A stretch of DNA of 64,000 bases, taken from the NCBI GenBank assembly GCA_964572145.1, contig CAZNES010000004.1:13443-77442 (forward strand). The letters run 5' to 3'. Below the pieces are notes generated by a model. It saw nothing but the letters and a program-made list of their open reading frames with translations, did no database searches and was not told where the DNA came from. Shown here piece after piece: positions 2,531 to 48,801 of the stretch. Origin of the DNA: an uncultured Syntrophobacteraceae bacterium. Lineage in GTDB: Bacteria; Desulfobacterota; Binatia; UBA9968. Every line of letters starts with the position of its first letter. Position 1 is the first letter of the stretch. Both the position numbers and the translations under genes were made by a program.

Positions 2531-3757
2531 ATGCTCTCCAGAGAAGAAAACGAACTGCTGACGCGAGTCGATCCCGGCAGCCCGATGGGAAATCTACTCA
2601 GGCGATACTGGACTCCCGCTCTGCTGGCGGAAGAAATTCCCGCGCCCGATTGCCCTCCCGTGCGGGTGAGACTTCTCGGCGAGGACCTGGTCGCCTTTCG
2701 CGACACGCAGGGAAGGATCGGCCTCTTGGACGAGCACTGCTCGCATCGAGGCACGTCGCTGTTTTACGGGCGCAACGAAGAGTGCGGTTTGAGGTGCGTC
2801 TATCACGGCTGGAAATACGACGTCGAGGGCAATGTGCTGGATACACCCGCCGAGCCTCCCGACAGCACGCTGAAAAACAAGGTCCATCATACCGCTTACC
2901 CGTGTGTCGAGGCGGGGGGCATGGTGTTCGCTTATATGGGACCGAAAGACAAGATGCCCATATTCCCGACTTACGCCTGGCTCGGCGTGCCGCAGAATCA
3001 GATCTACATAGCGAAGAGTCTCTTGGAGTGTAATTATCTCCAAGCCTTGGATGGCGACTGCGATTCTTCCCATCTGAATTTTCTCCATCGGATATTCAAG
3101 CCGGACGAGCGCAGAGATTTTCTCGCGTACGAAGATCAGTCGCCCGAATTCGAGATCGACGAGATGGAGTTCGGCTTCCGGGTCGCCGCCATCAGGAAGA
3201 TGGGCGCCGACAAGAATTACGTCCGCATCTCGCAATTCGTCATGCCGTTTATCGGCTGCGTTCCGGTCGGCCGCCTGATCGACGGGAAACTCGACGGTTT
3301 CAAAGCCGTTTACCAGGTTCCATCCGACGACCGGAATACCTGGAGATACGATTTCTTTTTCAAATGGTCGCGGCCGATTACGAAAGAAGATTCGTCGAAG
3401 CGCGATTTCGTCGGCCCCGATTACAAAAAGATTCGCAACCTCCGCAACAACTATCTCCAGGACCGGGAGGCTCAGAGGACGGTCAATTTTACCGGGATGG
3501 AAGAGTTCCTAAACCAGGACGCGTGCGCGACCGAGAGCATGGGGCCGATCGTGGACCGTACCAGAGAGCACCTCGGAGTGAGCGACTCGTACATTATCCA
3601 GGTGCGCCGGTTCTTGCTGAAGGCGGTGAAAGACGTCGAAGCGGGCAAACCGCCGCCGGGTCTCGTCTACGACCCCGGTAAGGCCGACTTTTCCCGCATT
3701 CGCTGCGACGTCGCCCATTTGCCTTCGAGCGTCTCCTGGAGAACGCTTTTCGCTTAG
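2531..3757 (+). CDS. Rieske [2Fe-2S] non-heme iron oxygenase alpha subunit (ring-hydroxylating / demethylase type)
   Basis: ATG at 2531 preceded by GGGAGGAG; CSHRGTSL...CVYHGWKYD Rieske motif; ~408 aa; N-terminus paralogous to the gene at 1-416. Confidence 0.85.
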   Translation: MLSREENELLTRVDPGSPMGNLLRRYWTPALLAEEIPAPDCPPVRVRLLGEDLVAFRDTQGRIGLLDEHCSHRGTSLFYGRNEECGLRCVYHGWKYDVEGNVLDTPAEPPDSTLKNKVHHTAYPCVEAGGMVFAYMGPKDKMPIFPTYAWLGVPQNQIYIAKSLLECNYLQALDGDCDSSHLNFLHRIFKPDERRDFLAYEDQSPEFEIDEMEFGFRVAAIRKMGADKNYVRISQFVMPFIGCVPVGRLIDGKLDGFKAVYQVPSDDRNTWRYDFFFKWSRPITKEDSSKRDFVGPDYKKIRNLRNNYLQDREAQRTVNFTGMEEFLNQDACATESMGPIVDRTREHLGVSDSYIIQVRRFLLKAVKDVEAGKPPPGLVYDPGKADFSRIRCDVAHLPSSVSWRTLFA

Positions 3758-33382: not shown

Positions 33383-34234
33383 ATGGAAGTCACGGAACCA
33401 CACCCGGCCATTGATATCCCGGTTGTTCGGATCGACGCCTTGGACAACCGGTTTTTATGGGAACTGCGGGAAATGTGGCAGCACCGGGAACTGCTGTATT
33501 TTCTCATTTGGCGTGAGGTCAAGGTACGGTATAAACAAACCGCCATCGGCATTTGGTGGGCGGTCCTTCAACCCTTCATGATGATGGTGATCTTCGCGGT
33601 CATCTTCGGTAAATTTGCGAACATTCCCTCCGACGGTTTTCCGTATCCGCTTTTTGCCTACACCGCGCTCCTCCCGTGGATATATTTTTCTCAGGCAGTC
33701 ACTCGCAGCGCCTATAGTCTCGTGGGCGACGCGAGTTTGCTCCAGAAAGTTTACTTTCCCCGCTTGATTCTCCCCTTAGCGGCGGTAATTGTGCCGCTGA
33801 TAGATTTTTTGTGTAGTGTTTTGGTGCTGCTAGGCATGCTCTTCTGGTACGGTGTAACACCGACCGCCGCCTGGCTGACCTTGCCGATTTTTTTATTCAT
33901 GGCTTTTTTGACTGCGCTTGCGGTAGGACTTTGGCTGGCGCCGCTGAATGTCCGATATCGGGACGTCAACGTCGCTATCCCCGTTTTAATTCAGTTATGG
34001 ATGTACGCTTCACCGATTGTGTATCCGACGAGCATGGTGCCGGAAAAATGGCGCTTGCTCTACAGTCTCAATCCCATGGTCGGCGTCATCAACGGGTTCC
34101 GGTGGGCTCTGCTGGGGGACGCAACGGTGAATTGGTGGCCGGTCTTAGTCAGCGTCTTGATGATCGCGCTCGTTTCGTTCGTTGGAATCATTATCTTCAG
34201 GCGCGCCGAGCCGTTTTTGGCGGATATTATCTAA
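33383..34234 (+). CDS. ABC-2 type polysaccharide export permease (Wzm), copy 1
   Basis: 6 TM; YRDVNVAIPVLIQLWMYASPIVYP ABC-2 signature. Confidence 0.85.
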   Translation: MEVTEPHPAIDIPVVRIDALDNRFLWELREMWQHRELLYFLIWREVKVRYKQTAIGIWWAVLQPFMMMVIFAVIFGKFANIPSDGFPYPLFAYTALLPWIYFSQAVTRSAYSLVGDASLLQKVYFPRLILPLAAVIVPLIDFLCSVLVLLGMLFWYGVTPTAAWLTLPIFLFMAFLTALAVGLWLAPLNVRYRDVNVAIPVLIQLWMYASPIVYPTSMVPEKWRLLYSLNPMVGVINGFRWALLGDATVNWWPVLVSVLMIALVSFVGIIIFRRAEPFLADII

Positions 34235-34253
34235 CAAAGCGCGGTCAGCTTTT

Positions 34254-35507
34254 ATGAGCGATATCGCTATTAGCGCAGAAAATCTGAGTAAGCGATACTT
34301 TATCAATGTGCCGAGGTTTCGCCACGATACCTTGCGTGATCGTATCATCGATGTGGCGAGCGGGTTGTTTTCCCGCAACGGTTATTCCTCGCCGTCCGAG
34401 GGAAGCGTCTGGGCATTGAGCCAAGTCTCCTTTGAAATAACGAAGGGACAAGTCGTCGCGGTCATCGGTCGCAACGGCGCCGGAAAAAGCACTCTGTTGA
34501 AGATACTGTCTCGTGTGACCAAGCCGACGAGCGGTTCTGCGGTGATCCACGGCCGAGTCGGATCTCTCCTGGAGGTCGGCACGGGGTTTCACCCGGAGCT
34601 GACCGGCAGAGAGAACATCTATCTAAGCGGCGCCGTCTTGGGCATGCGCAAGGCTGCTATAGAGCGACATTTCGATGAGATCGTCGATTTTTCCGGTGTG
34701 GATAAGTTCATCGACACTCCCGTAAAGCGCTACTCGAGCGGTATGTTTGTCCGGCTGGCTTTTGCCGTGGCGGCGCATCTCGATTCCGAAATCCTCATCG
34801 TCGATGAAGCGCTGGCGGTGGGCGACGCGGCGTTTCAAAAAAAATGTTTGGGAAAGATGGGGGATATAGCGAAGGGTGGAAGAACCATCTTGCTCGTCAG
34901 CCATAACATGGGATTTGTTTCCAGCCTGACTCAATCTGCCATGGTCTTGGAAAACGGCAGGCAAAAGTTCTTCGGTGATACCGCCCGAGCCGTTCCCGTG
35001 TACCTGGCGAACGTCTCAAAAAAGGAGCGGGAAAATCTATTGGAGCATGCAAACCGCGCGCCGGGCATGAGACCGGCCTTCATCTCAGCCGGTCTCAGTG
35101 ACAGCGATGGACTAGCGCGGGACATCTTCTCCACGGGCGAAGAGTGGTCTCTGGAAATGGAATATGCTTGCGTGGACGAGGTAAAACTAGCCGGCGCCGG
35201 ATTCACGATCTCGACATCCGATGGCATTCTTGTGGGCGAGTTGAATTCCTTCATGTGTTTGCCGCCCCCTCATCGAATCGCGCCAAAAGGCAAAATACGA
35301 TTTTGCATCCCCGAGCTGCCGCTGTGTCCGGGGTCTTATACCGTAAGCCTCTTTTTGGTGAAGGACGATACTTTCCGCTACGATAGTATAGATTGCGCCC
35401 TCGATTTTTCGGTCGAGAAGAACGATCCGACCGGCACGGGATTCGTCCTTACACGAGCGCATGGCCTGTGCGCGTTAAAAGGCTCCTTCCAAGATACGGA
35501 TGGATAG
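34254..35507 (+). CDS. Polysaccharide ABC exporter ATP-binding protein (Wzt) with C-terminal carbohydrate-binding-like domain, copy 1
   Basis: ATG at 34254; Walker A GRNGAGKST, signature YSSGMFVRLAF, Walker B ILIVDEALAVGD; ~150-aa C-terminal extension. Confidence 0.9.
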   Translation: MSDIAISAENLSKRYFINVPRFRHDTLRDRIIDVASGLFSRNGYSSPSEGSVWALSQVSFEITKGQVVAVIGRNGAGKSTLLKILSRVTKPTSGSAVIHGRVGSLLEVGTGFHPELTGRENIYLSGAVLGMRKAAIERHFDEIVDFSGVDKFIDTPVKRYSSGMFVRLAFAVAAHLDSEILIVDEALAVGDAAFQKKCLGKMGDIAKGGRTILLVSHNMGFVSSLTQSAMVLENGRQKFFGDTARAVPVYLANVSKKERENLLEHANRAPGMRPAFISAGLSDSDGLARDIFSTGEEWSLEMEYACVDEVKLAGAGFTISTSDGILVGELNSFMCLPPPHRIAPKGKIRFCIPELPLCPGSYTVSLFLVKDDTFRYDSIDCALDFSVEKNDPTGTGFVLTRAHGLCALKGSFQDTDG

Positions 35508-35590
35508 CGCGTTGGCGACTTAAACCCATCCACAGCCGAGCATTGCCCTAGCGGGAGATTTGAGGCAGTTCAAGTATTACGGGAGATCTG

Positions 35591-36514
35591 ATGGAAGTTA
35601 CGACTCAATCTGATGATGCTTCCAGCCGCGTGCCCGGTGAAAAGGAAACGATGTCTAGGTTCGACGTGCGCGACGAAAAACAAGAAAAGCCGGATCTGCC
35701 GAGCATTCGTATCGAGCATTCCCGCGGTTGGGTTTCGCTTCGACTCCGGGAGCTATGGGATCATCGAGAGCTTCTTTATTTCCTGGTCTGGCGTGACGTG
35801 AAAGTACGCTACAAGCAGGCGGCCCTTGGCGCCACCTGGACAGTAATCCAACCGCTGATCACGATGATGATCTTTACCGTGATCTTCAGCTATTTTGCGA
35901 AAATATCTACGGCGGGGGTGCCTTACCCGCTTTTTGTTTTCAGCGCTCTGTTGCCTTGGTACTATTTTGCGTCGGCGTTCGCCCGCGGCGGCAACAGCCT
36001 TTTGGGCGACGCCCATCTAATCGAGAAGGTTTACTTTCCGCGCTTGATTCTTCCGCTTTGCGCTGTGACCACCCCGCTGATGGATTTCTTGTTCAGTTTT
36101 GTAGTTCTGATTGGCCTGATGTTCTGGTTCGGAATCACGCCTACGTGGAACGTAATGGTCTTACCTTTTTTCGTTTGTCTAGCGTTGCTGACCGCTCTTG
36201 CAACGTGTCTTTGGCTCGCGCCTCTCAATGTCAGATACCGCGACATCGGCCACACCATCCCGTTTCTGATTCAGGTATGGATGTATGCTTCTCCGGTGGT
36301 TTATCCGGTGAGCATGATTCCGGAGCGATGGCGCTTGCTCTACAGCCTGAACCCGATGGTAGGCGTGATCGAGGGCTTCCGCTGGGCACTATTCGGCAAC
36401 AAGAGACCGGCTTTCGACTTGATGGCGGTGAGCGTCGCGATGGTGTTGCTGCTGCTTTGGGGCGGAGCGATGTTCTTTCGGCGGATGGAACGGACGTTTG
36501 CGGATATCGTATGA
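35591..36514 (+). CDS. ABC-2 type polysaccharide export permease (Wzm), copy 2
   Basis: ~65% identical to the 33383-34234 product over the core; the start may be an internal Met. Confidence 0.85.
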   Translation: MEVTTQSDDASSRVPGEKETMSRFDVRDEKQEKPDLPSIRIEHSRGWVSLRLRELWDHRELLYFLVWRDVKVRYKQAALGATWTVIQPLITMMIFTVIFSYFAKISTAGVPYPLFVFSALLPWYYFASAFARGGNSLLGDAHLIEKVYFPRLILPLCAVTTPLMDFLFSFVVLIGLMFWFGITPTWNVMVLPFFVCLALLTALATCLWLAPLNVRYRDIGHTIPFLIQVWMYASPVVYPVSMIPERWRLLYSLNPMVGVIEGFRWALFGNKRPAFDLMAVSVAMVLLLLWGGAMFFRRMERTFADIV

Positions 36515-37138
36515 TGACAGCCGACGGTCGACCGCCGACGGTAGACGGACGACGGCCGGTGAGAGACCGCCGACAGTAGACGGTCCATGGCCCTTGGTCC
36601 ATCGTCCACGGTCCGCCATCGTCAGTCCCTCGTCAACCGTCTGCGGTCAGCGGTCGGTATTTTGTTAAATGTACAAATTTGAGAAATTAGAAGTTTACCA
36701 GTTGGCTCTCCAATACACGGATATGATTTACAGCCTCACGGAAAAGCTTCCGAAGAACGAGGAACACAATCTGAAGTCTCAAATAATACGGGCCGCCACT
36801 TCGGTCGTGCTCAATATTGCCGAAGGCTCGACCGGTCAGAGTGATGCGGAGCAAAGACGGTTCCTGGGTATGGCAATTCGTTCGCTTTTGGAAACTGTAG
36901 CCTGCCAACAACTCATTGAACGTCGTCGATATGTTAACAAGGAAGAACTATCTAAGGATTACGAGTTTAGCCAGATGCTTTACGCGAAGCTCCAAGCCAT
37001 GCGTCGCTCGCTCCAAAAAAGCAGGAATGAAAAGTGAAGACCCTTATTGGCTGTCCGCCGTCGCCCATCAATGGTCAGCGATCTTCTTCATCAGTCTACC
37101 GTCCTCTGTCTACCGTCAATCGTCGTTAATTTAATACC
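36515..37138. mobile_element. Inverted-repeat-flanked cassette carrying a four-helix-bundle (23S rRNA IVS family) gene, inserted between wzm2 and wzt2
   Basis: Upstream CGACGGTAGACGG / CGACAGTAGACGG plus GACCGCCGACGG; downstream the reverse complements GTCTACCGTC (x2) and CCGCCGTCGCC; lower local GC. Confidence 0.35.
36669..37037 (+). CDS. Four-helix-bundle protein (23S rRNA intervening-sequence protein family)
   Basis: MYKFEKLEVYQLALQYTDMIYSLTEKLPKNEEHNLKSQIIRAATSVVLNIAEGS... matches the family consensus (FExLxVWQ.A..L...IY..T..FP..E.Y.L.SQ..RAA.S...NIAEG). Confidence 0.75.
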   Translation: MYKFEKLEVYQLALQYTDMIYSLTEKLPKNEEHNLKSQIIRAATSVVLNIAEGSTGQSDAEQRRFLGMAIRSLLETVACQQLIERRRYVNKEELSKDYEFSQMLYAKLQAMRRSLQKSRNEK

Positions 37139-38479
37139 ATGAGCGACATTGCCATCAGAGTCGAGAATCTCTCCAAGCAGTATAAAATCGGAGTGGCCCA
37201 GTACCGTCACGATTCCATACGGGATCATCTGACGGAGTGGGTTAAGTCGCTGTTCGTTCGCAATGGCACTCCCTCTCCCTCAACTCTCGTCACTGAACCC
37301 TCCGCTCTTGGCCCTCAGGCCTCAGCGCCCAGCGGTCATCCGTCTTCGGTCGACGGTCGTTCAGATACCATTTGGGCCCTCAAGGATGTCTCGTTCGAAG
37401 TCAAGCAGGGCGAAGTAATCGGCATCATCGGTCGCAACGGCTCAGGAAAAAGCACGCTGCTCAAGATTCTCTCCCGCATCACCGAACCGACCAGCGGTTT
37501 TGTCGACATTCACGGGCGGGCAGGCTCCCTGCTGGAAGTCGGCACAGGCTTTCACCGCGATCTTACCGGGAGGGAAAATATCTATCTCAACGGCGCTATT
37601 CTGGGAATGAAGAAGGCGGAGATTGAGCGTAAATTCGACGAGATCGTTGATTTCTCGGGGGTGGAGAAGTTCATTGACACGCCGGTCAAGCGATATTCGA
37701 GCGGCATGAACGTACGCCTGGCTTTCGCGGTTGCGGCTCATTTGGACCCGGAGATTCTAATCTTGGACGAGGTGCTGGCCGTCGGCGACGCCGATTTTCA
37801 GAAGAAGTGCCTGGGCAAGATGGGCGATGTAGCCAAGGAAGGTCGAACGGTCTTGTTCGTCAGTCATAATGCTGTGGCAATAAAGAATCTGTGTCACAAA
37901 GGTATCATGCTCGAAGGGGGCACAATTGCATTCAATGGCCAAGCGGAAGACGCCGTGGATTTTTATCTTGAGAGCGTAGAGAAAAAAGAGCAGATTTGCA
38001 GATCCCCTGTGGTTGATCTGAGCAAGGCTCCGGGAAGGCGCGCCGGCTTCGCTCCGTTACTACAACGGCTCGAGCTTGTCACGGAAGGCGACCGGCCCGT
38101 AACAGACGGTCTGCCGGTCGGCGCTTCGTTAACGGCGCGGATACATTTTCGGTTAGAAAAACCCGCCTCGAACGTTCACACGAACATCGCGTTCGACAAC
38201 CTCTTTGGACAACGAATCTTTCATGCCCACAGCGGTTATGATGCCGATTACCAACAAGTGACGCGGGTAGGTGACCAAAGATGTATATGTGAGATCCCCT
38301 GTCTTAATCTGATTCCTGGGGAGTACAAGATTAAAGTAGGGCTCGATATCGACGGTGCTCCTGGGGACGGTGTAGAAGATGCCGTCCGTCTTAGGATTTT
38401 TGAGTCTGATTTTTACGGCACTGGAAAAATTCCACGGAGCGGTACGTTCGTTATGAAGCATTACTGGCGCTTCATCTAA
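37139..38479 (+). CDS. Polysaccharide ABC exporter ATP-binding protein (Wzt) with C-terminal carbohydrate-binding-like domain, copy 2
   Basis: Walker A GRNGSGKST, signature YSSGMNVRLAF, Walker B ILILDEVLAVGD; C-terminal domain divergent from copy 1. Confidence 0.9.
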   Translation: MSDIAIRVENLSKQYKIGVAQYRHDSIRDHLTEWVKSLFVRNGTPSPSTLVTEPSALGPQASAPSGHPSSVDGRSDTIWALKDVSFEVKQGEVIGIIGRNGSGKSTLLKILSRITEPTSGFVDIHGRAGSLLEVGTGFHRDLTGRENIYLNGAILGMKKAEIERKFDEIVDFSGVEKFIDTPVKRYSSGMNVRLAFAVAAHLDPEILILDEVLAVGDADFQKKCLGKMGDVAKEGRTVLFVSHNAVAIKNLCHKGIMLEGGTIAFNGQAEDAVDFYLESVEKKEQICRSPVVDLSKAPGRRAGFAPLLQRLELVTEGDRPVTDGLPVGASLTARIHFRLEKPASNVHTNIAFDNLFGQRIFHAHSGYDADYQQVTRVGDQRCICEIPCLNLIPGEYKIKVGLDIDGAPGDGVEDAVRLRIFESDFYGTGKIPRSGTFVMKHYWRFI

Positions 38480-47868: not shown

Positions 47869-48801
47869 ATGAACCCCAAACGGCTTGCCAAGAGTTTTGC
47901 TCATTGGACTATCCCGCCGGGGTTTCAAGACATATTACGGTCTTGCCTTGTAAGAAACGGAGGTATGCCCGCCACTGACCCCCAAGAGGACGCCGCTATC
48001 CTGGAAAAGCAAGCAATCCCGAACCGCGAAAAGCAAGCAATCCTGAACCGCAATATGAAGTTTCTGAATAAACATAGAGGTCGGCGATGCTTTGTGTTGG
48101 CGACGGGTCCCTCGATTTATAAGCAAGATCTGAGGCCTCTTCAGAACGAGTGGTGCATCGCTGTCAATGAGTTTTACAAGCACGAGCATTATAGCCTCAT
48201 TAAGCCCGCTTATTATACATTGCCGCCTACTTGGACAACCCGCCTAGACATGGGAAAAAGATTGAGAAGATTAGGAGAATTGAAGCAACTTTCTCAAGAC
48301 GAGATATTCTTTTTTGACGTGACCGACAAAAAGTGGGTGGAGAGTTCGAACTTTGCCGACAATCTGGAGCGGGTGCACTACCTCGACCTTAGAGATGATT
48401 TTACCCCCTCAAGTATAGACCTTACGGGATGCATGCCAGGCCCGCAGTCTACGGCATTAATTGCGACGTGGATTGCCATGTATATGGGGTTTTCTGAGGT
48501 ATATCTGCTCGGATGTGACTACGATGTTTTGTGGAAATGGGATGGGTCCTCACGCTACCTTCGAAAGGACCTTTACAAGCATTTCTACCAAGGTGCGCCT
48601 ACTGTAGGCTACGAGCCGATGGACCTTGATGGCGAACTTCGCGGGCACCTACGGCTGAGAGAACAGTATCGGTGGACTGATGATATTGCGGCGCGCCAGA
48701 ACACAAGGCTTGTTAACGCTAATCCACAGAGCTACCTGGATATCCTCCCCAGAGTGCCGTTAGAGTCAGTTCTTCTACCAGAATCCCCCGGCGTACGATG
48801 A
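47869..48801 (+). CDS. Cst-II/GT42-like (DUF115-related) CMP-ulosonic acid transferase candidate
   Basis: FVLATGPSI / CIAVNEFY / YLLGCDYD align with the AGNGPSL / CNQFY / YLSGIDFY motifs of Campylobacter Cst-II-type sialyltransferases; ATG at 47869 after AGGAAGGAAG. Confidence 0.55.
   Translation: MNPKRLAKSFAHWTIPPGFQDILRSCLVRNGGMPATDPQEDAAILEKQAIPNREKQAILNRNMKFLNKHRGRRCFVLATGPSIYKQDLRPLQNEWCIAVNEFYKHEHYSLIKPAYYTLPPTWTTRLDMGKRLRRLGELKQLSQDEIFFFDVTDKKWVESSNFADNLERVHYLDLRDDFTPSSIDLTGCMPGPQSTALIATWIAMYMGFSEVYLLGCDYDVLWKWDGSSRYLRKDLYKHFYQGAPTVGYEPMDLDGELRGHLRLREQYRWTDDIAARQNTRLVNANPQSYLDILPRVPLESVLLPESPGVR
48004..48051 (+). repeat. Perfect-but-one 24-nt in-frame tandem duplication (2 copies) inside the GT42-like gene
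   Basis: GAAAAGCAAGCAATCC(C/T)GAACCGC x2 encoding EKQAIPNR-EKQAILNR. Confidence 0.7.

Follow-up and report, generated by a model that had tools for sequence, protein, structure and literature searches.

Inverted heptamer arrays bracket a four-helix-bundle gene at a wzm-wzt junction and recur around PF05635 genes in many phyla

The 624-bp segment 36515-37138 of the window, a 64-kb stretch of contig CAZNES010000004.1 from an uncultured Syntrophobacteraceae bacterium, fills exactly the gap between the stop codon of wzm2 and the start codon of wzt2. It is an intervening sequence (IVS)-type element at an mRNA operon junction: a self-contained cassette with a promoter-less gene for a four-helix-bundle (4HB) protein, co-directional with its host genes and bracketed by arrays of degenerate 7-nt units in inverted orientation. 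The same layout was found around PF05635 genes at about 100 loci of many phyla, and this family-wide link between heptamer arrays and 4HB genes is the interesting result. A conserved IVS-type 4HB cassette, for which we infer a mechanism of RNA stems and RNA processing, is the best explanation of the data, and we hold it with moderate confidence. The features of the cassette and its host genes are as follows.

35591 to 36514, + strand: wzm2, the left host gene, an ABC-2 permease (PF01061, ABC2_membrane, E 1.3e-17)
36516 to 36585, + strand: left G-rich (GACNNNN) arrays in two blocks, 36516-36555 and 36563-36585 (TRF period 7/14; an arm of inverted repeats I1 and I4)
36586 to 36655, + strand: C-rich (NNNNGTC) arrays, the inner-hairpin arm before the open reading frame (ORF), complementary to 36529-36584
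36656 to 36668, + strand: AT-rich spacer GGTATTTTGTTAA before the 4HB ATG, 77% complementary to 37126-37138 (inverted repeat I19)
36669 to 37037, + strand: 4HB gene (23S rRNA IVS protein, Avd-like), 122 aa, pI 9.2 (evidence: PF05635, TIGR02436, AlphaFold2 model, dN/dS)
37049 to 37125, + strand: right C-rich arrays, the reverse complement of the left ones (GTCTACCGTC twice; GC skew -0.27)
37126 to 37138, + strand: AT-rich spacer TTAATTTAATACC before the wzt2 ATG, with the right-end motif CGTCGTTAATyTAATCCy-ATG
37139 to 38479, + strand: wzt2, the right host gene, an ABC ATPase with a Wzt_C domain (PF00005, ABC_tran; PF14524)

The stop codon TGA of wzm2 (36512-36514) directly abuts the cassette. 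The left arrays start one base past this stop, and their GACNNNN units run to approximately position 36585. An earlier note on this DNA, made from the letters alone, had described the flanks as odd GGTCC- and CGACGG-rich low-complexity DNA. The oddness is real, but it is a 7-nt periodicity rather than low complexity, with degenerate (GACNNNN)n on the left and its reverse complement (NNNNGTC)n on the right. The period-7 match was 0.57 in the upstream and 0.44 in the downstream flank of the gene, and a third tract, which lies within wzt2 (37289-37360), reached 0.62. Shuffled sequences gave 0.27-0.29, and none of 1000 shuffles reached the observed value in any of the three tracts. The pattern (GACN4)x3GAC matched eight times in the window, always at the cassette locus (expected number 0.00) and with + strand matches in the left arrays, and in a sliding scan the period-7 match exceeded 0.6 nowhere else in the 64 kb.

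The two flanks are also inverted repeats of each other, as the earlier note had recognised from motifs upstream of the gene and their reverse complements downstream. The left arrays (GC skew +0.10) hold the terminal inverted-repeat core GACGGTAGAC, which occurs exactly at 36537 (+) and with one mismatch at 36523, 36572 and 36632, and its reverse complement GTCTACCGTC occurs exactly at 37094 and 37108. The best arms, 36523-36552 and 37088-37117, are 30 nt long with 80% complementarity. The ungapped inverted-repeat score between left and right was 15, against 7.1 +/- 1.0 in 500 dinucleotide shuffles, none of which scored as high. In the minimum free energy (MFE) fold, 36512-36564 paired with approximately 37060-37125, so that the ORF lies within a stem of terminal inverted repeats, as is characteristic of IVSs. 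An inner hairpin upstream of the gene (inverted repeats I2, 26 nt, 81%, and I5, 20 nt, 85%) scored 14.5 versus 7.8 +/- 1.2 in shuffles and was visible in the same fold. Since tandem units align in no unique register, array pairing was assessed by inverted-repeat tests on each locus instead of by alifold or covariance. The core GACGGTAGAC/GTCTACCGTC was conserved in relatives despite saturated synonymous sites (loci L174, L163, L003 and L182), and the right-end motif was kept in L174, L163, L182 and L178. An origin of the repeats by chance or from low-complexity sequence was ruled out by the shuffles together with the recurrence of the layout in about 100 independent loci.

A scan for promoters and terminators gave counts equal to those in shuffled sequences, and there is thus no sign of a separate transcription unit. 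No Shine-Dalgarno sequence was evident in the AT-rich spacers before the 4HB gene and wzt2.

The assignment of the 122-aa ORF to the four-helix-bundle family was upheld by matches above the cutoffs to PF05635 23S_rRNA_IVP (E 5.9e-27; 94.4 bits, cutoff 33.8) and to TIGR02436 'four helix bundle protein' (89.3 bits, cutoff 24). The AlphaFold2 monomer model had a pLDDT of 91.3 and predicted helices at residues 4-24, 29-54, 59-85 and 91-121. Foldseek searches with this model matched 2GSC (TM 0.85, root-mean-square deviation 0.9) and 2RLD (TM 0.82), followed by Avd of diversity-generating retroelements (DGRs; 8UB7 and 4DWL, TM ~0.78). The only sequence relatives in the PDB were XCC0516 (2GSC; phmmer E 1.5e-13) and BT_0352 (2RLD). 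The protein is thus a PF05635/TIGR02436 family member, with the up-down four-helix fold of the XCC0516 and BT_0352 type in the model. A homopentameric ring is a further trait of the family, and the model covers one subunit. The conserved family motif is GxxRxxxSxxxNxxE (PMC3936711). In a 30-sequence alignment the motif was recovered with R41, S45, N49, E52 and G53 invariant, inside ...IRAATSVVLNIAEGS..., and its leading G is absent in the 4HB clade of the window. Among members of this clade the ratio of nonsynonymous to synonymous substitution rates (dN/dS) was 0.05-0.10 with saturated synonymous sites (dS), and the protein has therefore long been kept by selection. A relationship to HEPN domains was also considered and rejected, as the family is unmentioned in the HEPN survey paper and the fold matches beyond Avd were generic helical bundles.

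The bracket is a general signature of PF05635 genes across phyla. It was analyzed in 80 loci from species-representative (GTDB) genomes, taken as relatives at 40-80% identity and coming from Deltaproteobacteria, Chloroflexota, Acidobacteriota, WOR-3, Spirochaetia, Bipolaricaulota and many Bacteroidota. Over the 42 nt next to the gene on each side, the mean period-7 match was 0.44 upstream and 0.40 downstream over a background of 0.25, to which the signal fell within ~150 nt of the 4HB gene. Periods 5, 6, 8 and 9 gave no signal at these flanks. The period was always 7. The unit changed with the protein clade and differed by lineage, examples being GGTTCAT/ATGAACC in Chitinophagaceae and Mucilaginibacter, GGACGAT/ATCGTCC in Anaerolineae, and GACGGGA in an acidobacterium. 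The G-rich arm lay upstream, with GC skew positive upstream in 65 and negative downstream in 60 of 77 loci. In 56 loci the two flanks shared more heptamers in inverted than in direct orientation, against 17 loci in which direct sharing prevailed, and the flank-to-flank duplex energy exceeded that of shuffles (p = 4e-11). Across the 1.03 Mb of DNA fetched, the 250 nt on either side of a 4HB gene showed an 18-fold enrichment of period-7 tracts. The neighbours of the 4HB gene were co-directional on both sides in >90% of loci, which places such genes within operons.

Heptamer flanks were likewise present at six or seven of eight 4HB loci in an independent set, drawn from annotated plasmids of Nostoc, Anabaena, Calothrix, Picosynechococcus, Riemerella and Gemmatirosa. 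On a Nostoc edaphicum plasmid, for instance, the 4HB gene is preceded by (GGGAGTA)x8 and followed by (TCCCTAC)x5. Heptamer-flanked 4HB genes were also found inside cas operons, between cas6 and cas4 (L185, Anabaena sp. 90 pANA02) and between cmr2 and cmr3 (L190, a Picosynechococcus PCC 7003 plasmid). An 'association' of 23S_rRNA_IVP with CRISPR-Cas loci has been reported (PMC3936711, PMC10910872), and such insertions may explain it. Hairpins of forward and reverse arrays with no gene between them were detected as well (L018:895-1248, L046:5279-5334, L063:7464-7571 and L014:3886-4078), and their unit type was the same as that of the local 4HB flanks.

Published data for Xanthomonas and Coxiella contain the array-4HB link without stating it. 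In Xanthomonas campestris, a 4-unit GGGAATC array overlaps the start codon of XCC0516 directly after bccP (accB, XCC0517; repeat #15, PMC4692102 supplementary file 2). XCC0516 is the crystallised family member (2GSC), and the same paper lists it merely as 'conserved' (PMC4692102). The 23S IVS of Coxiella has GACAGAT units in tandem ahead of its S23p ORF (PMC4990558). No paper stating the link between heptamer arrays and PF05635 was found in the open-access literature, and an earlier description elsewhere is possible.

The insertion of the cassette between wzm2 and wzt2, another claim of the earlier note, was borne out by a metagenome scan with Wzm2 as query (80 loci). In ~47 of these loci the wzm stop and the wzt start were separated by -12 to +16 nt and in five further loci by 38-119 nt, and none of these cassette-less loci had a period-7 tract. 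In five loci the gap was 470-580 nt and was filled by arrays and a 4HB gene (in L084, by an array and the first codons of one). Given the prevalence of tight, arrayless pairs, a tight wzm-wzt junction is the probable ground state, and the cassette is, as judged from these comparisons, a derived insertion in a normally tightly coupled pair. Empty junctions were the norm in relatives at most ~65% identical, and no closely related empty site was found among the loci of the scan. The comparison with loci lacking the insertion that the earlier note had proposed thus yielded tight cassette-less pairs. All 4HB homologues examined at 55-91% identity had their repeats and were arranged as ABC2_membrane, 4HB, ABC_tran-Wzt_C, except that in two the gene lay just upstream of wzm (L012 and L016). 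The note had named relatives with the gene and no repeats as the outcome that would speak against its view, but gene and repeats occur together in the relatives. The flanks were significantly inverted in 12 of 13 loci with a 4HB gene between wzm and wzt; in most of them the arm began 3-12 nt past the wzm stop, and the Wzm2 C-terminus ...ERTFADIV* was kept in relatives.

The history of the cassette is partly decoupled from that of its flanks, as the following identities to the window show.

L083: 4HB 27%, Wzm 72%, Wzt nucleotide-binding domain 79%
L087: 4HB 59%, Wzm 62%, Wzt nucleotide-binding domain 70%
L163: 4HB 85%, Wzm 59%, Wzt nucleotide-binding domain 70%

The closest Wzm relatives, L083 (3865-4349), L089 and L093 (66-72% identical), have a different 4HB subfamily at the junction, which is 26-29% identical and starts with MTKQRPKFRFMDLEIWQ...; its heptamers are GCAAAGC upstream and of the GCTTTGC type downstream. 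In L176, an intact 4HB gene at the wzm-wzt junction is directly followed by what is left of a second, L087-like one, namely its C-terminal 35-50 aa (2887-3036; tblastn E 3e-7). These four loci suggest that cassettes have been exchanged at the junction. Two PF05635 genes were found in one polysaccharide operon of L180, one between DegT and Bac_transf (439-834) and one between wzm and wzt (2501-2878). The 4HB tree of the Bacteroidota groups by junction type and not by genome, apart from a few switches (aguB-aguA, purK-purE, amgK-murU, pepP-pssA, ubiA and moxR-DUF58). The junction and repeats shared by close homologues, together with the low dN/dS at saturated dS, indicate an old, conserved resident of the operon lineage. 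Its history was probably one of long residence with rare exchange or relocation and not of active jumping. The view of the earlier note that this is a mobile or recombinogenic cassette rather than a native operon member is therefore retained as to insertion and exchange, but not as to a MITE-like (miniature inverted-repeat transposable element) or recently mobile nature.

A third array lies inside the right host gene.

37289 to 37360, + strand: third heptamer array, C-rich, in the same orientation as the right flank and in frame in wzt2 (period-7 match 0.62 versus 0.29 in shuffles)

It encodes an enlarged N-terminal loop of Wzt2 (...PSALGPQASAPSGHPSSVDGRSD...) and contains one (GACN4)x3GAC match on the - strand (37335-37358). 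The segment before WALKDVSF has 78 aa in the window versus 49-57 aa in cassette-less Wzt proteins. Array-encoded expansions of 61-90 aa were found in at least ten distinct cassette-bearing loci (L003, L008, L009, L010, L013, L015, L019, L083, L087 and L174), the sense strand being always C-rich, and none of ~50 cassette-less loci had a period-7 signal in this segment. The upstream array of L008 and L009 finds its sole complement in the intragenic array. In L083, the wzt loop retains a GTC-type array although the cassette flanks are now of the GCAAAGC type. In the closest relative (L173, 4HB 91% identical), a wzt gene upstream of wzm has a heptamer array at 801-880 with a frameshift inside it (L173:675-1000), and the gene caller starts the wzt ORF past the array. 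Phase variation is one possible reading of this frameshift, and a pseudogene or a misassembly are others. The intragenic array might serve as an alternative partner for pairing, be left over from a former right end or be a tract prone to slippage.

Among known systems, the closest likeness is to the ORF-bearing 23S IVSs of Leptospira, Coxiella burnetii, Brucella and Haemophilus, in which a PF05635 ORF also lies within stem-forming terminal inverted repeats, inserted in a highly conserved and highly transcribed host unit. The heptamers GACAGAT directly upstream of the Coxiella ORF, whose number varies between strains (PMC4990558), are a further resemblance. However, 23S IVSs are located in helix 25 or 45 whereas the cassette lies at a protein-coding wzm-wzt junction, outside the usual IVS location. 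Unlike the 23S IVSs, the cassette has long degenerate arrays on both sides, and its ORF is under strong purifying selection while that of the Coxiella IVS is decaying. Excision by RNase III is a feature of the rRNA IVSs, to which the cassette is likened by sequence and predicted fold.

The arrays themselves resemble the heptanucleotide arrays of other bacteria, namely the short tandemly repeated repetitive (STRR) sequences of cyanobacteria, GGGAATC and GGGGATT of Xanthomonas and Nostoc, and TAACTGA of Beggiatoaceae. These are intergenic tandem 7-nt units, often near start or stop codons. Those of Xanthomonas often form convergent inverted pairs (70-75 pairs, PMC4692102), as the cassette flanks do, and 4HB genes on plasmids of Nostoc, Calothrix and Anabaena are flanked by arrays of this kind. 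The genomes of the bacteria named have far more arrays than 4HB genes, whereas in the window the arrays occur only at the cassette. In the papers on them, the arrays figure as formers of G-quadruplexes or as sites at which an unknown post-transcriptional regulator would act, with no connection made to PF05635.

Two further systems are analogies only. Repetitive extragenic palindromic (REP) sequences or bacterial interspersed mosaic elements (BIMEs) with a REP-associated tyrosine transposase (RAYT), together called REPtrons, have a small gene bracketed by a short repeat in inverted copies, and this repeat is also found solo elsewhere. Integron gene cassettes are promoter-less single ORFs inserted co-directionally in a transcribed array. 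However, no nuclease or recombinase motif is known in the 4HB protein, the cassette comes with neither an integrase nor an attC-type site, and the REPtron repeat is a single palindrome while that of the cassette is a tandem 7-mer.

The proposed mechanism starts from operon read-through, by which the cassette would be transcribed. The inverted arrays would then fold into long imperfect stems that draw the end of wzm and the start of wzt together. By analogy with Avd in DGRs, these stems might be bound by a pentameric Avd-like 4HB protein and, by analogy with rRNA IVSs, they might also or instead be cut by RNase III. By such binding or cutting, the flanking genes would be controlled in their processing, stability or translation. 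Recombination within the arrays or within the conserved gene ends could account for spread and exchange, with no need of a transposase. As RNase III cuts IVS stems (PMC4990558) and the Avd pentamer binds RNA stem-loops adjoining its own gene (10.1101/2023.10.23.563531), a module of co-transcribed stems is favoured.

Several observations weigh against this explanation. Sense and antisense flank duplexes showed no RNA-specific (G:U) asymmetry (40 versus 38 loci, p = 0.46), and with equal stability the complementary flanks could act in DNA just as in RNA, as a hairpin, cruciform or recombination site. The fold z-score of the cassette in the window was only -2.2, and an Rfam search of 36300-37500 in E-value mode matched no family. 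The putative binding of the 4HB protein to the arrays is drawn from the Avd analogy. Arrays were weak or absent in some members of the family (L186; ~1/4 of loci). Conversely, arrays without a 4HB gene were found in the fetched DNA and are known from Xanthomonas, which has 186 heptamer arrays (PMC4692102). The intragenic wzt array has a role that the mechanism leaves unexplained. Finally, the strict wzm-wzt association and the strong purifying selection could point to a function related to the transporter.

The latter possibility, that the protein is a true accessory component or regulator of Wzm/Wzt glycan exporters and the gene a native operon member with incidental repeats, is in our view unlikely, though the least unlikely of the alternatives. 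It would agree with the position of all homologues of 55-91% identity at or next to a wzm-wzt junction in several phyla, with the dN/dS of 0.05-0.10, and with a co-directional gene that has no promoter of its own. However, the gene is present in a minority of related pairs (5 of about 57) and absent from the paralogous wzm1-wzt1 of the window, and the closest Wzm relatives have an unrelated 4HB subfamily at the same site. Other clades of the family sit at unrelated junctions (aguB-aguA, purK-purE, amgK-murU, cas genes, accB and 23S rRNA), and the family-wide period 7 and its 18-fold enrichment speak against incidental repeats. That the cassette is an active element of the MITE or transposon kind, spreading through the genome by itself, appears improbable. 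Terminal inverted repeats, solo array hairpins in other genomes (L018, L046, L063 and L014), the few junction switches in the 4HB tree and the two cassettes in one operon of L180 are what such an element might leave. The multiplicity expected of a MITE in the earlier note was contradicted by the window, in which there is no further copy of the arrays, of GACGGTAGAC-type termini or of the cassette, no transposase or integrase, and no evident target-site duplication. Copies at the same junction are saturated at synonymous sites, and the tree follows junction type instead of genome.

An equally improbable alternative takes the arrays for contingency tracts, in which 7-nt slippage would toggle wzt or the stem length and cause phase variation of surface glycan export. 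As 7 is not a multiple of 3, slippage by one unit would switch wzt on or off. The in-frame array inside wzt2, the frameshift of the L173 wzt1 orthologue exactly inside such an array, and the repeat number differing among Coxiella strains (PMC4990558) are compatible with this, and heptamer simple sequence repeats have been regarded as prone to slippage (Mrazek 2007, cited in PMC4679880). However, the degenerate units of the window would be poor slippage substrates, three independent assemblies of the locus were 100% identical, and the inversion of the arrays around a conserved gene would be left unaccounted for. The identical metagenome copies L001 and L002 thus showed no variation. Metagenomes that contain the locus are JGI 3300010391, SRR6155509 and SRR30681685-7. 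Least probable by far is a DGR remnant with an orphan Avd gene. The 4HB protein shares with Avd the four-helix-bundle fold (TM ~0.78 to 8UB7 and 4DWL) and a basic character (pI 9.2), and it matched the Avd equivalog weakly (E 0.002). That match to NF033474 scored 18.2 bits against a cutoff of 80 bits, no reverse transcriptase (RVT) was encoded among the genes at ~21-48 kb of the window, and no long repeat resembling a template repeat/variable repeat pair was found within 36450-37200, the span to which the repeat search was limited. The cassette also has heptamer arrays in place of the Spacer element of DGRs.

If the IVS-type cassette is taken as the starting point, a wider proposal can be made tentatively and by analogy. 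PF05635 proteins might be the cognate partners of heptanucleotide arrays (STRR, GGGAATC, TAACTGA and GACNNNN), which they would bind, maintain or propagate. Gene and arrays would then form an unrecognised class of operon-embedded elements spanning phyla, with ORF-bearing 23S IVSs as a special case and solo hairpins as gene-less derivatives comparable to REP/RAYT. If true, this would account for the excess of 7-nt repeats in bacteria and for the function of a large 'function unknown' family. Three long-standing puzzles are concerned, namely the purpose of the ORF inside some 23S rRNA intervening sequences (1993 onward), the role of the stand-alone genes annotated as 'four helix bundle / S23 ribosomal protein', which are very abundant, and the over-representation of 7-nt tandem repeats in bacterial genomes (STRR 1990, Mrazek 2007). 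The data tie them together, as the family is bracketed by inverted heptamer arrays of fixed polarity at co-transcribed gene junctions. The link is testable in cultivable systems such as XCC0516 beside accB (bccP) in Xanthomonas, purK-purE in Mucilaginibacter, and Nostoc. It also has consequences for annotation, since assemblies break at such arrays, which next to cas genes can look like CRISPR-type repeats and can also enter coding loops, as in wzt.

The cassette belongs to a large exopolysaccharide locus in which two wzm-wzt pairs are arranged in tandem (33383-38479), and it is present in the second pair only. The genes wzm1 and wzt1 just upstream are spaced by ~19 nt. The Pfam content of the genes from ~21 to ~48 kb of the window is restricted to polysaccharide biosynthesis and export, with Poly_export, GNVR, Bac_transf, a DUF3473 deacetylase and a FemAB-like protein upstream, and NeuB, CTP_transf_3 and CMP-sugar genes downstream. 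A 24-nt unit (GAAAAGCAAGCAATCCCGAACCGC) is repeated twice with 95% identity at 48004-48051 and is unrelated to the heptamer arrays.

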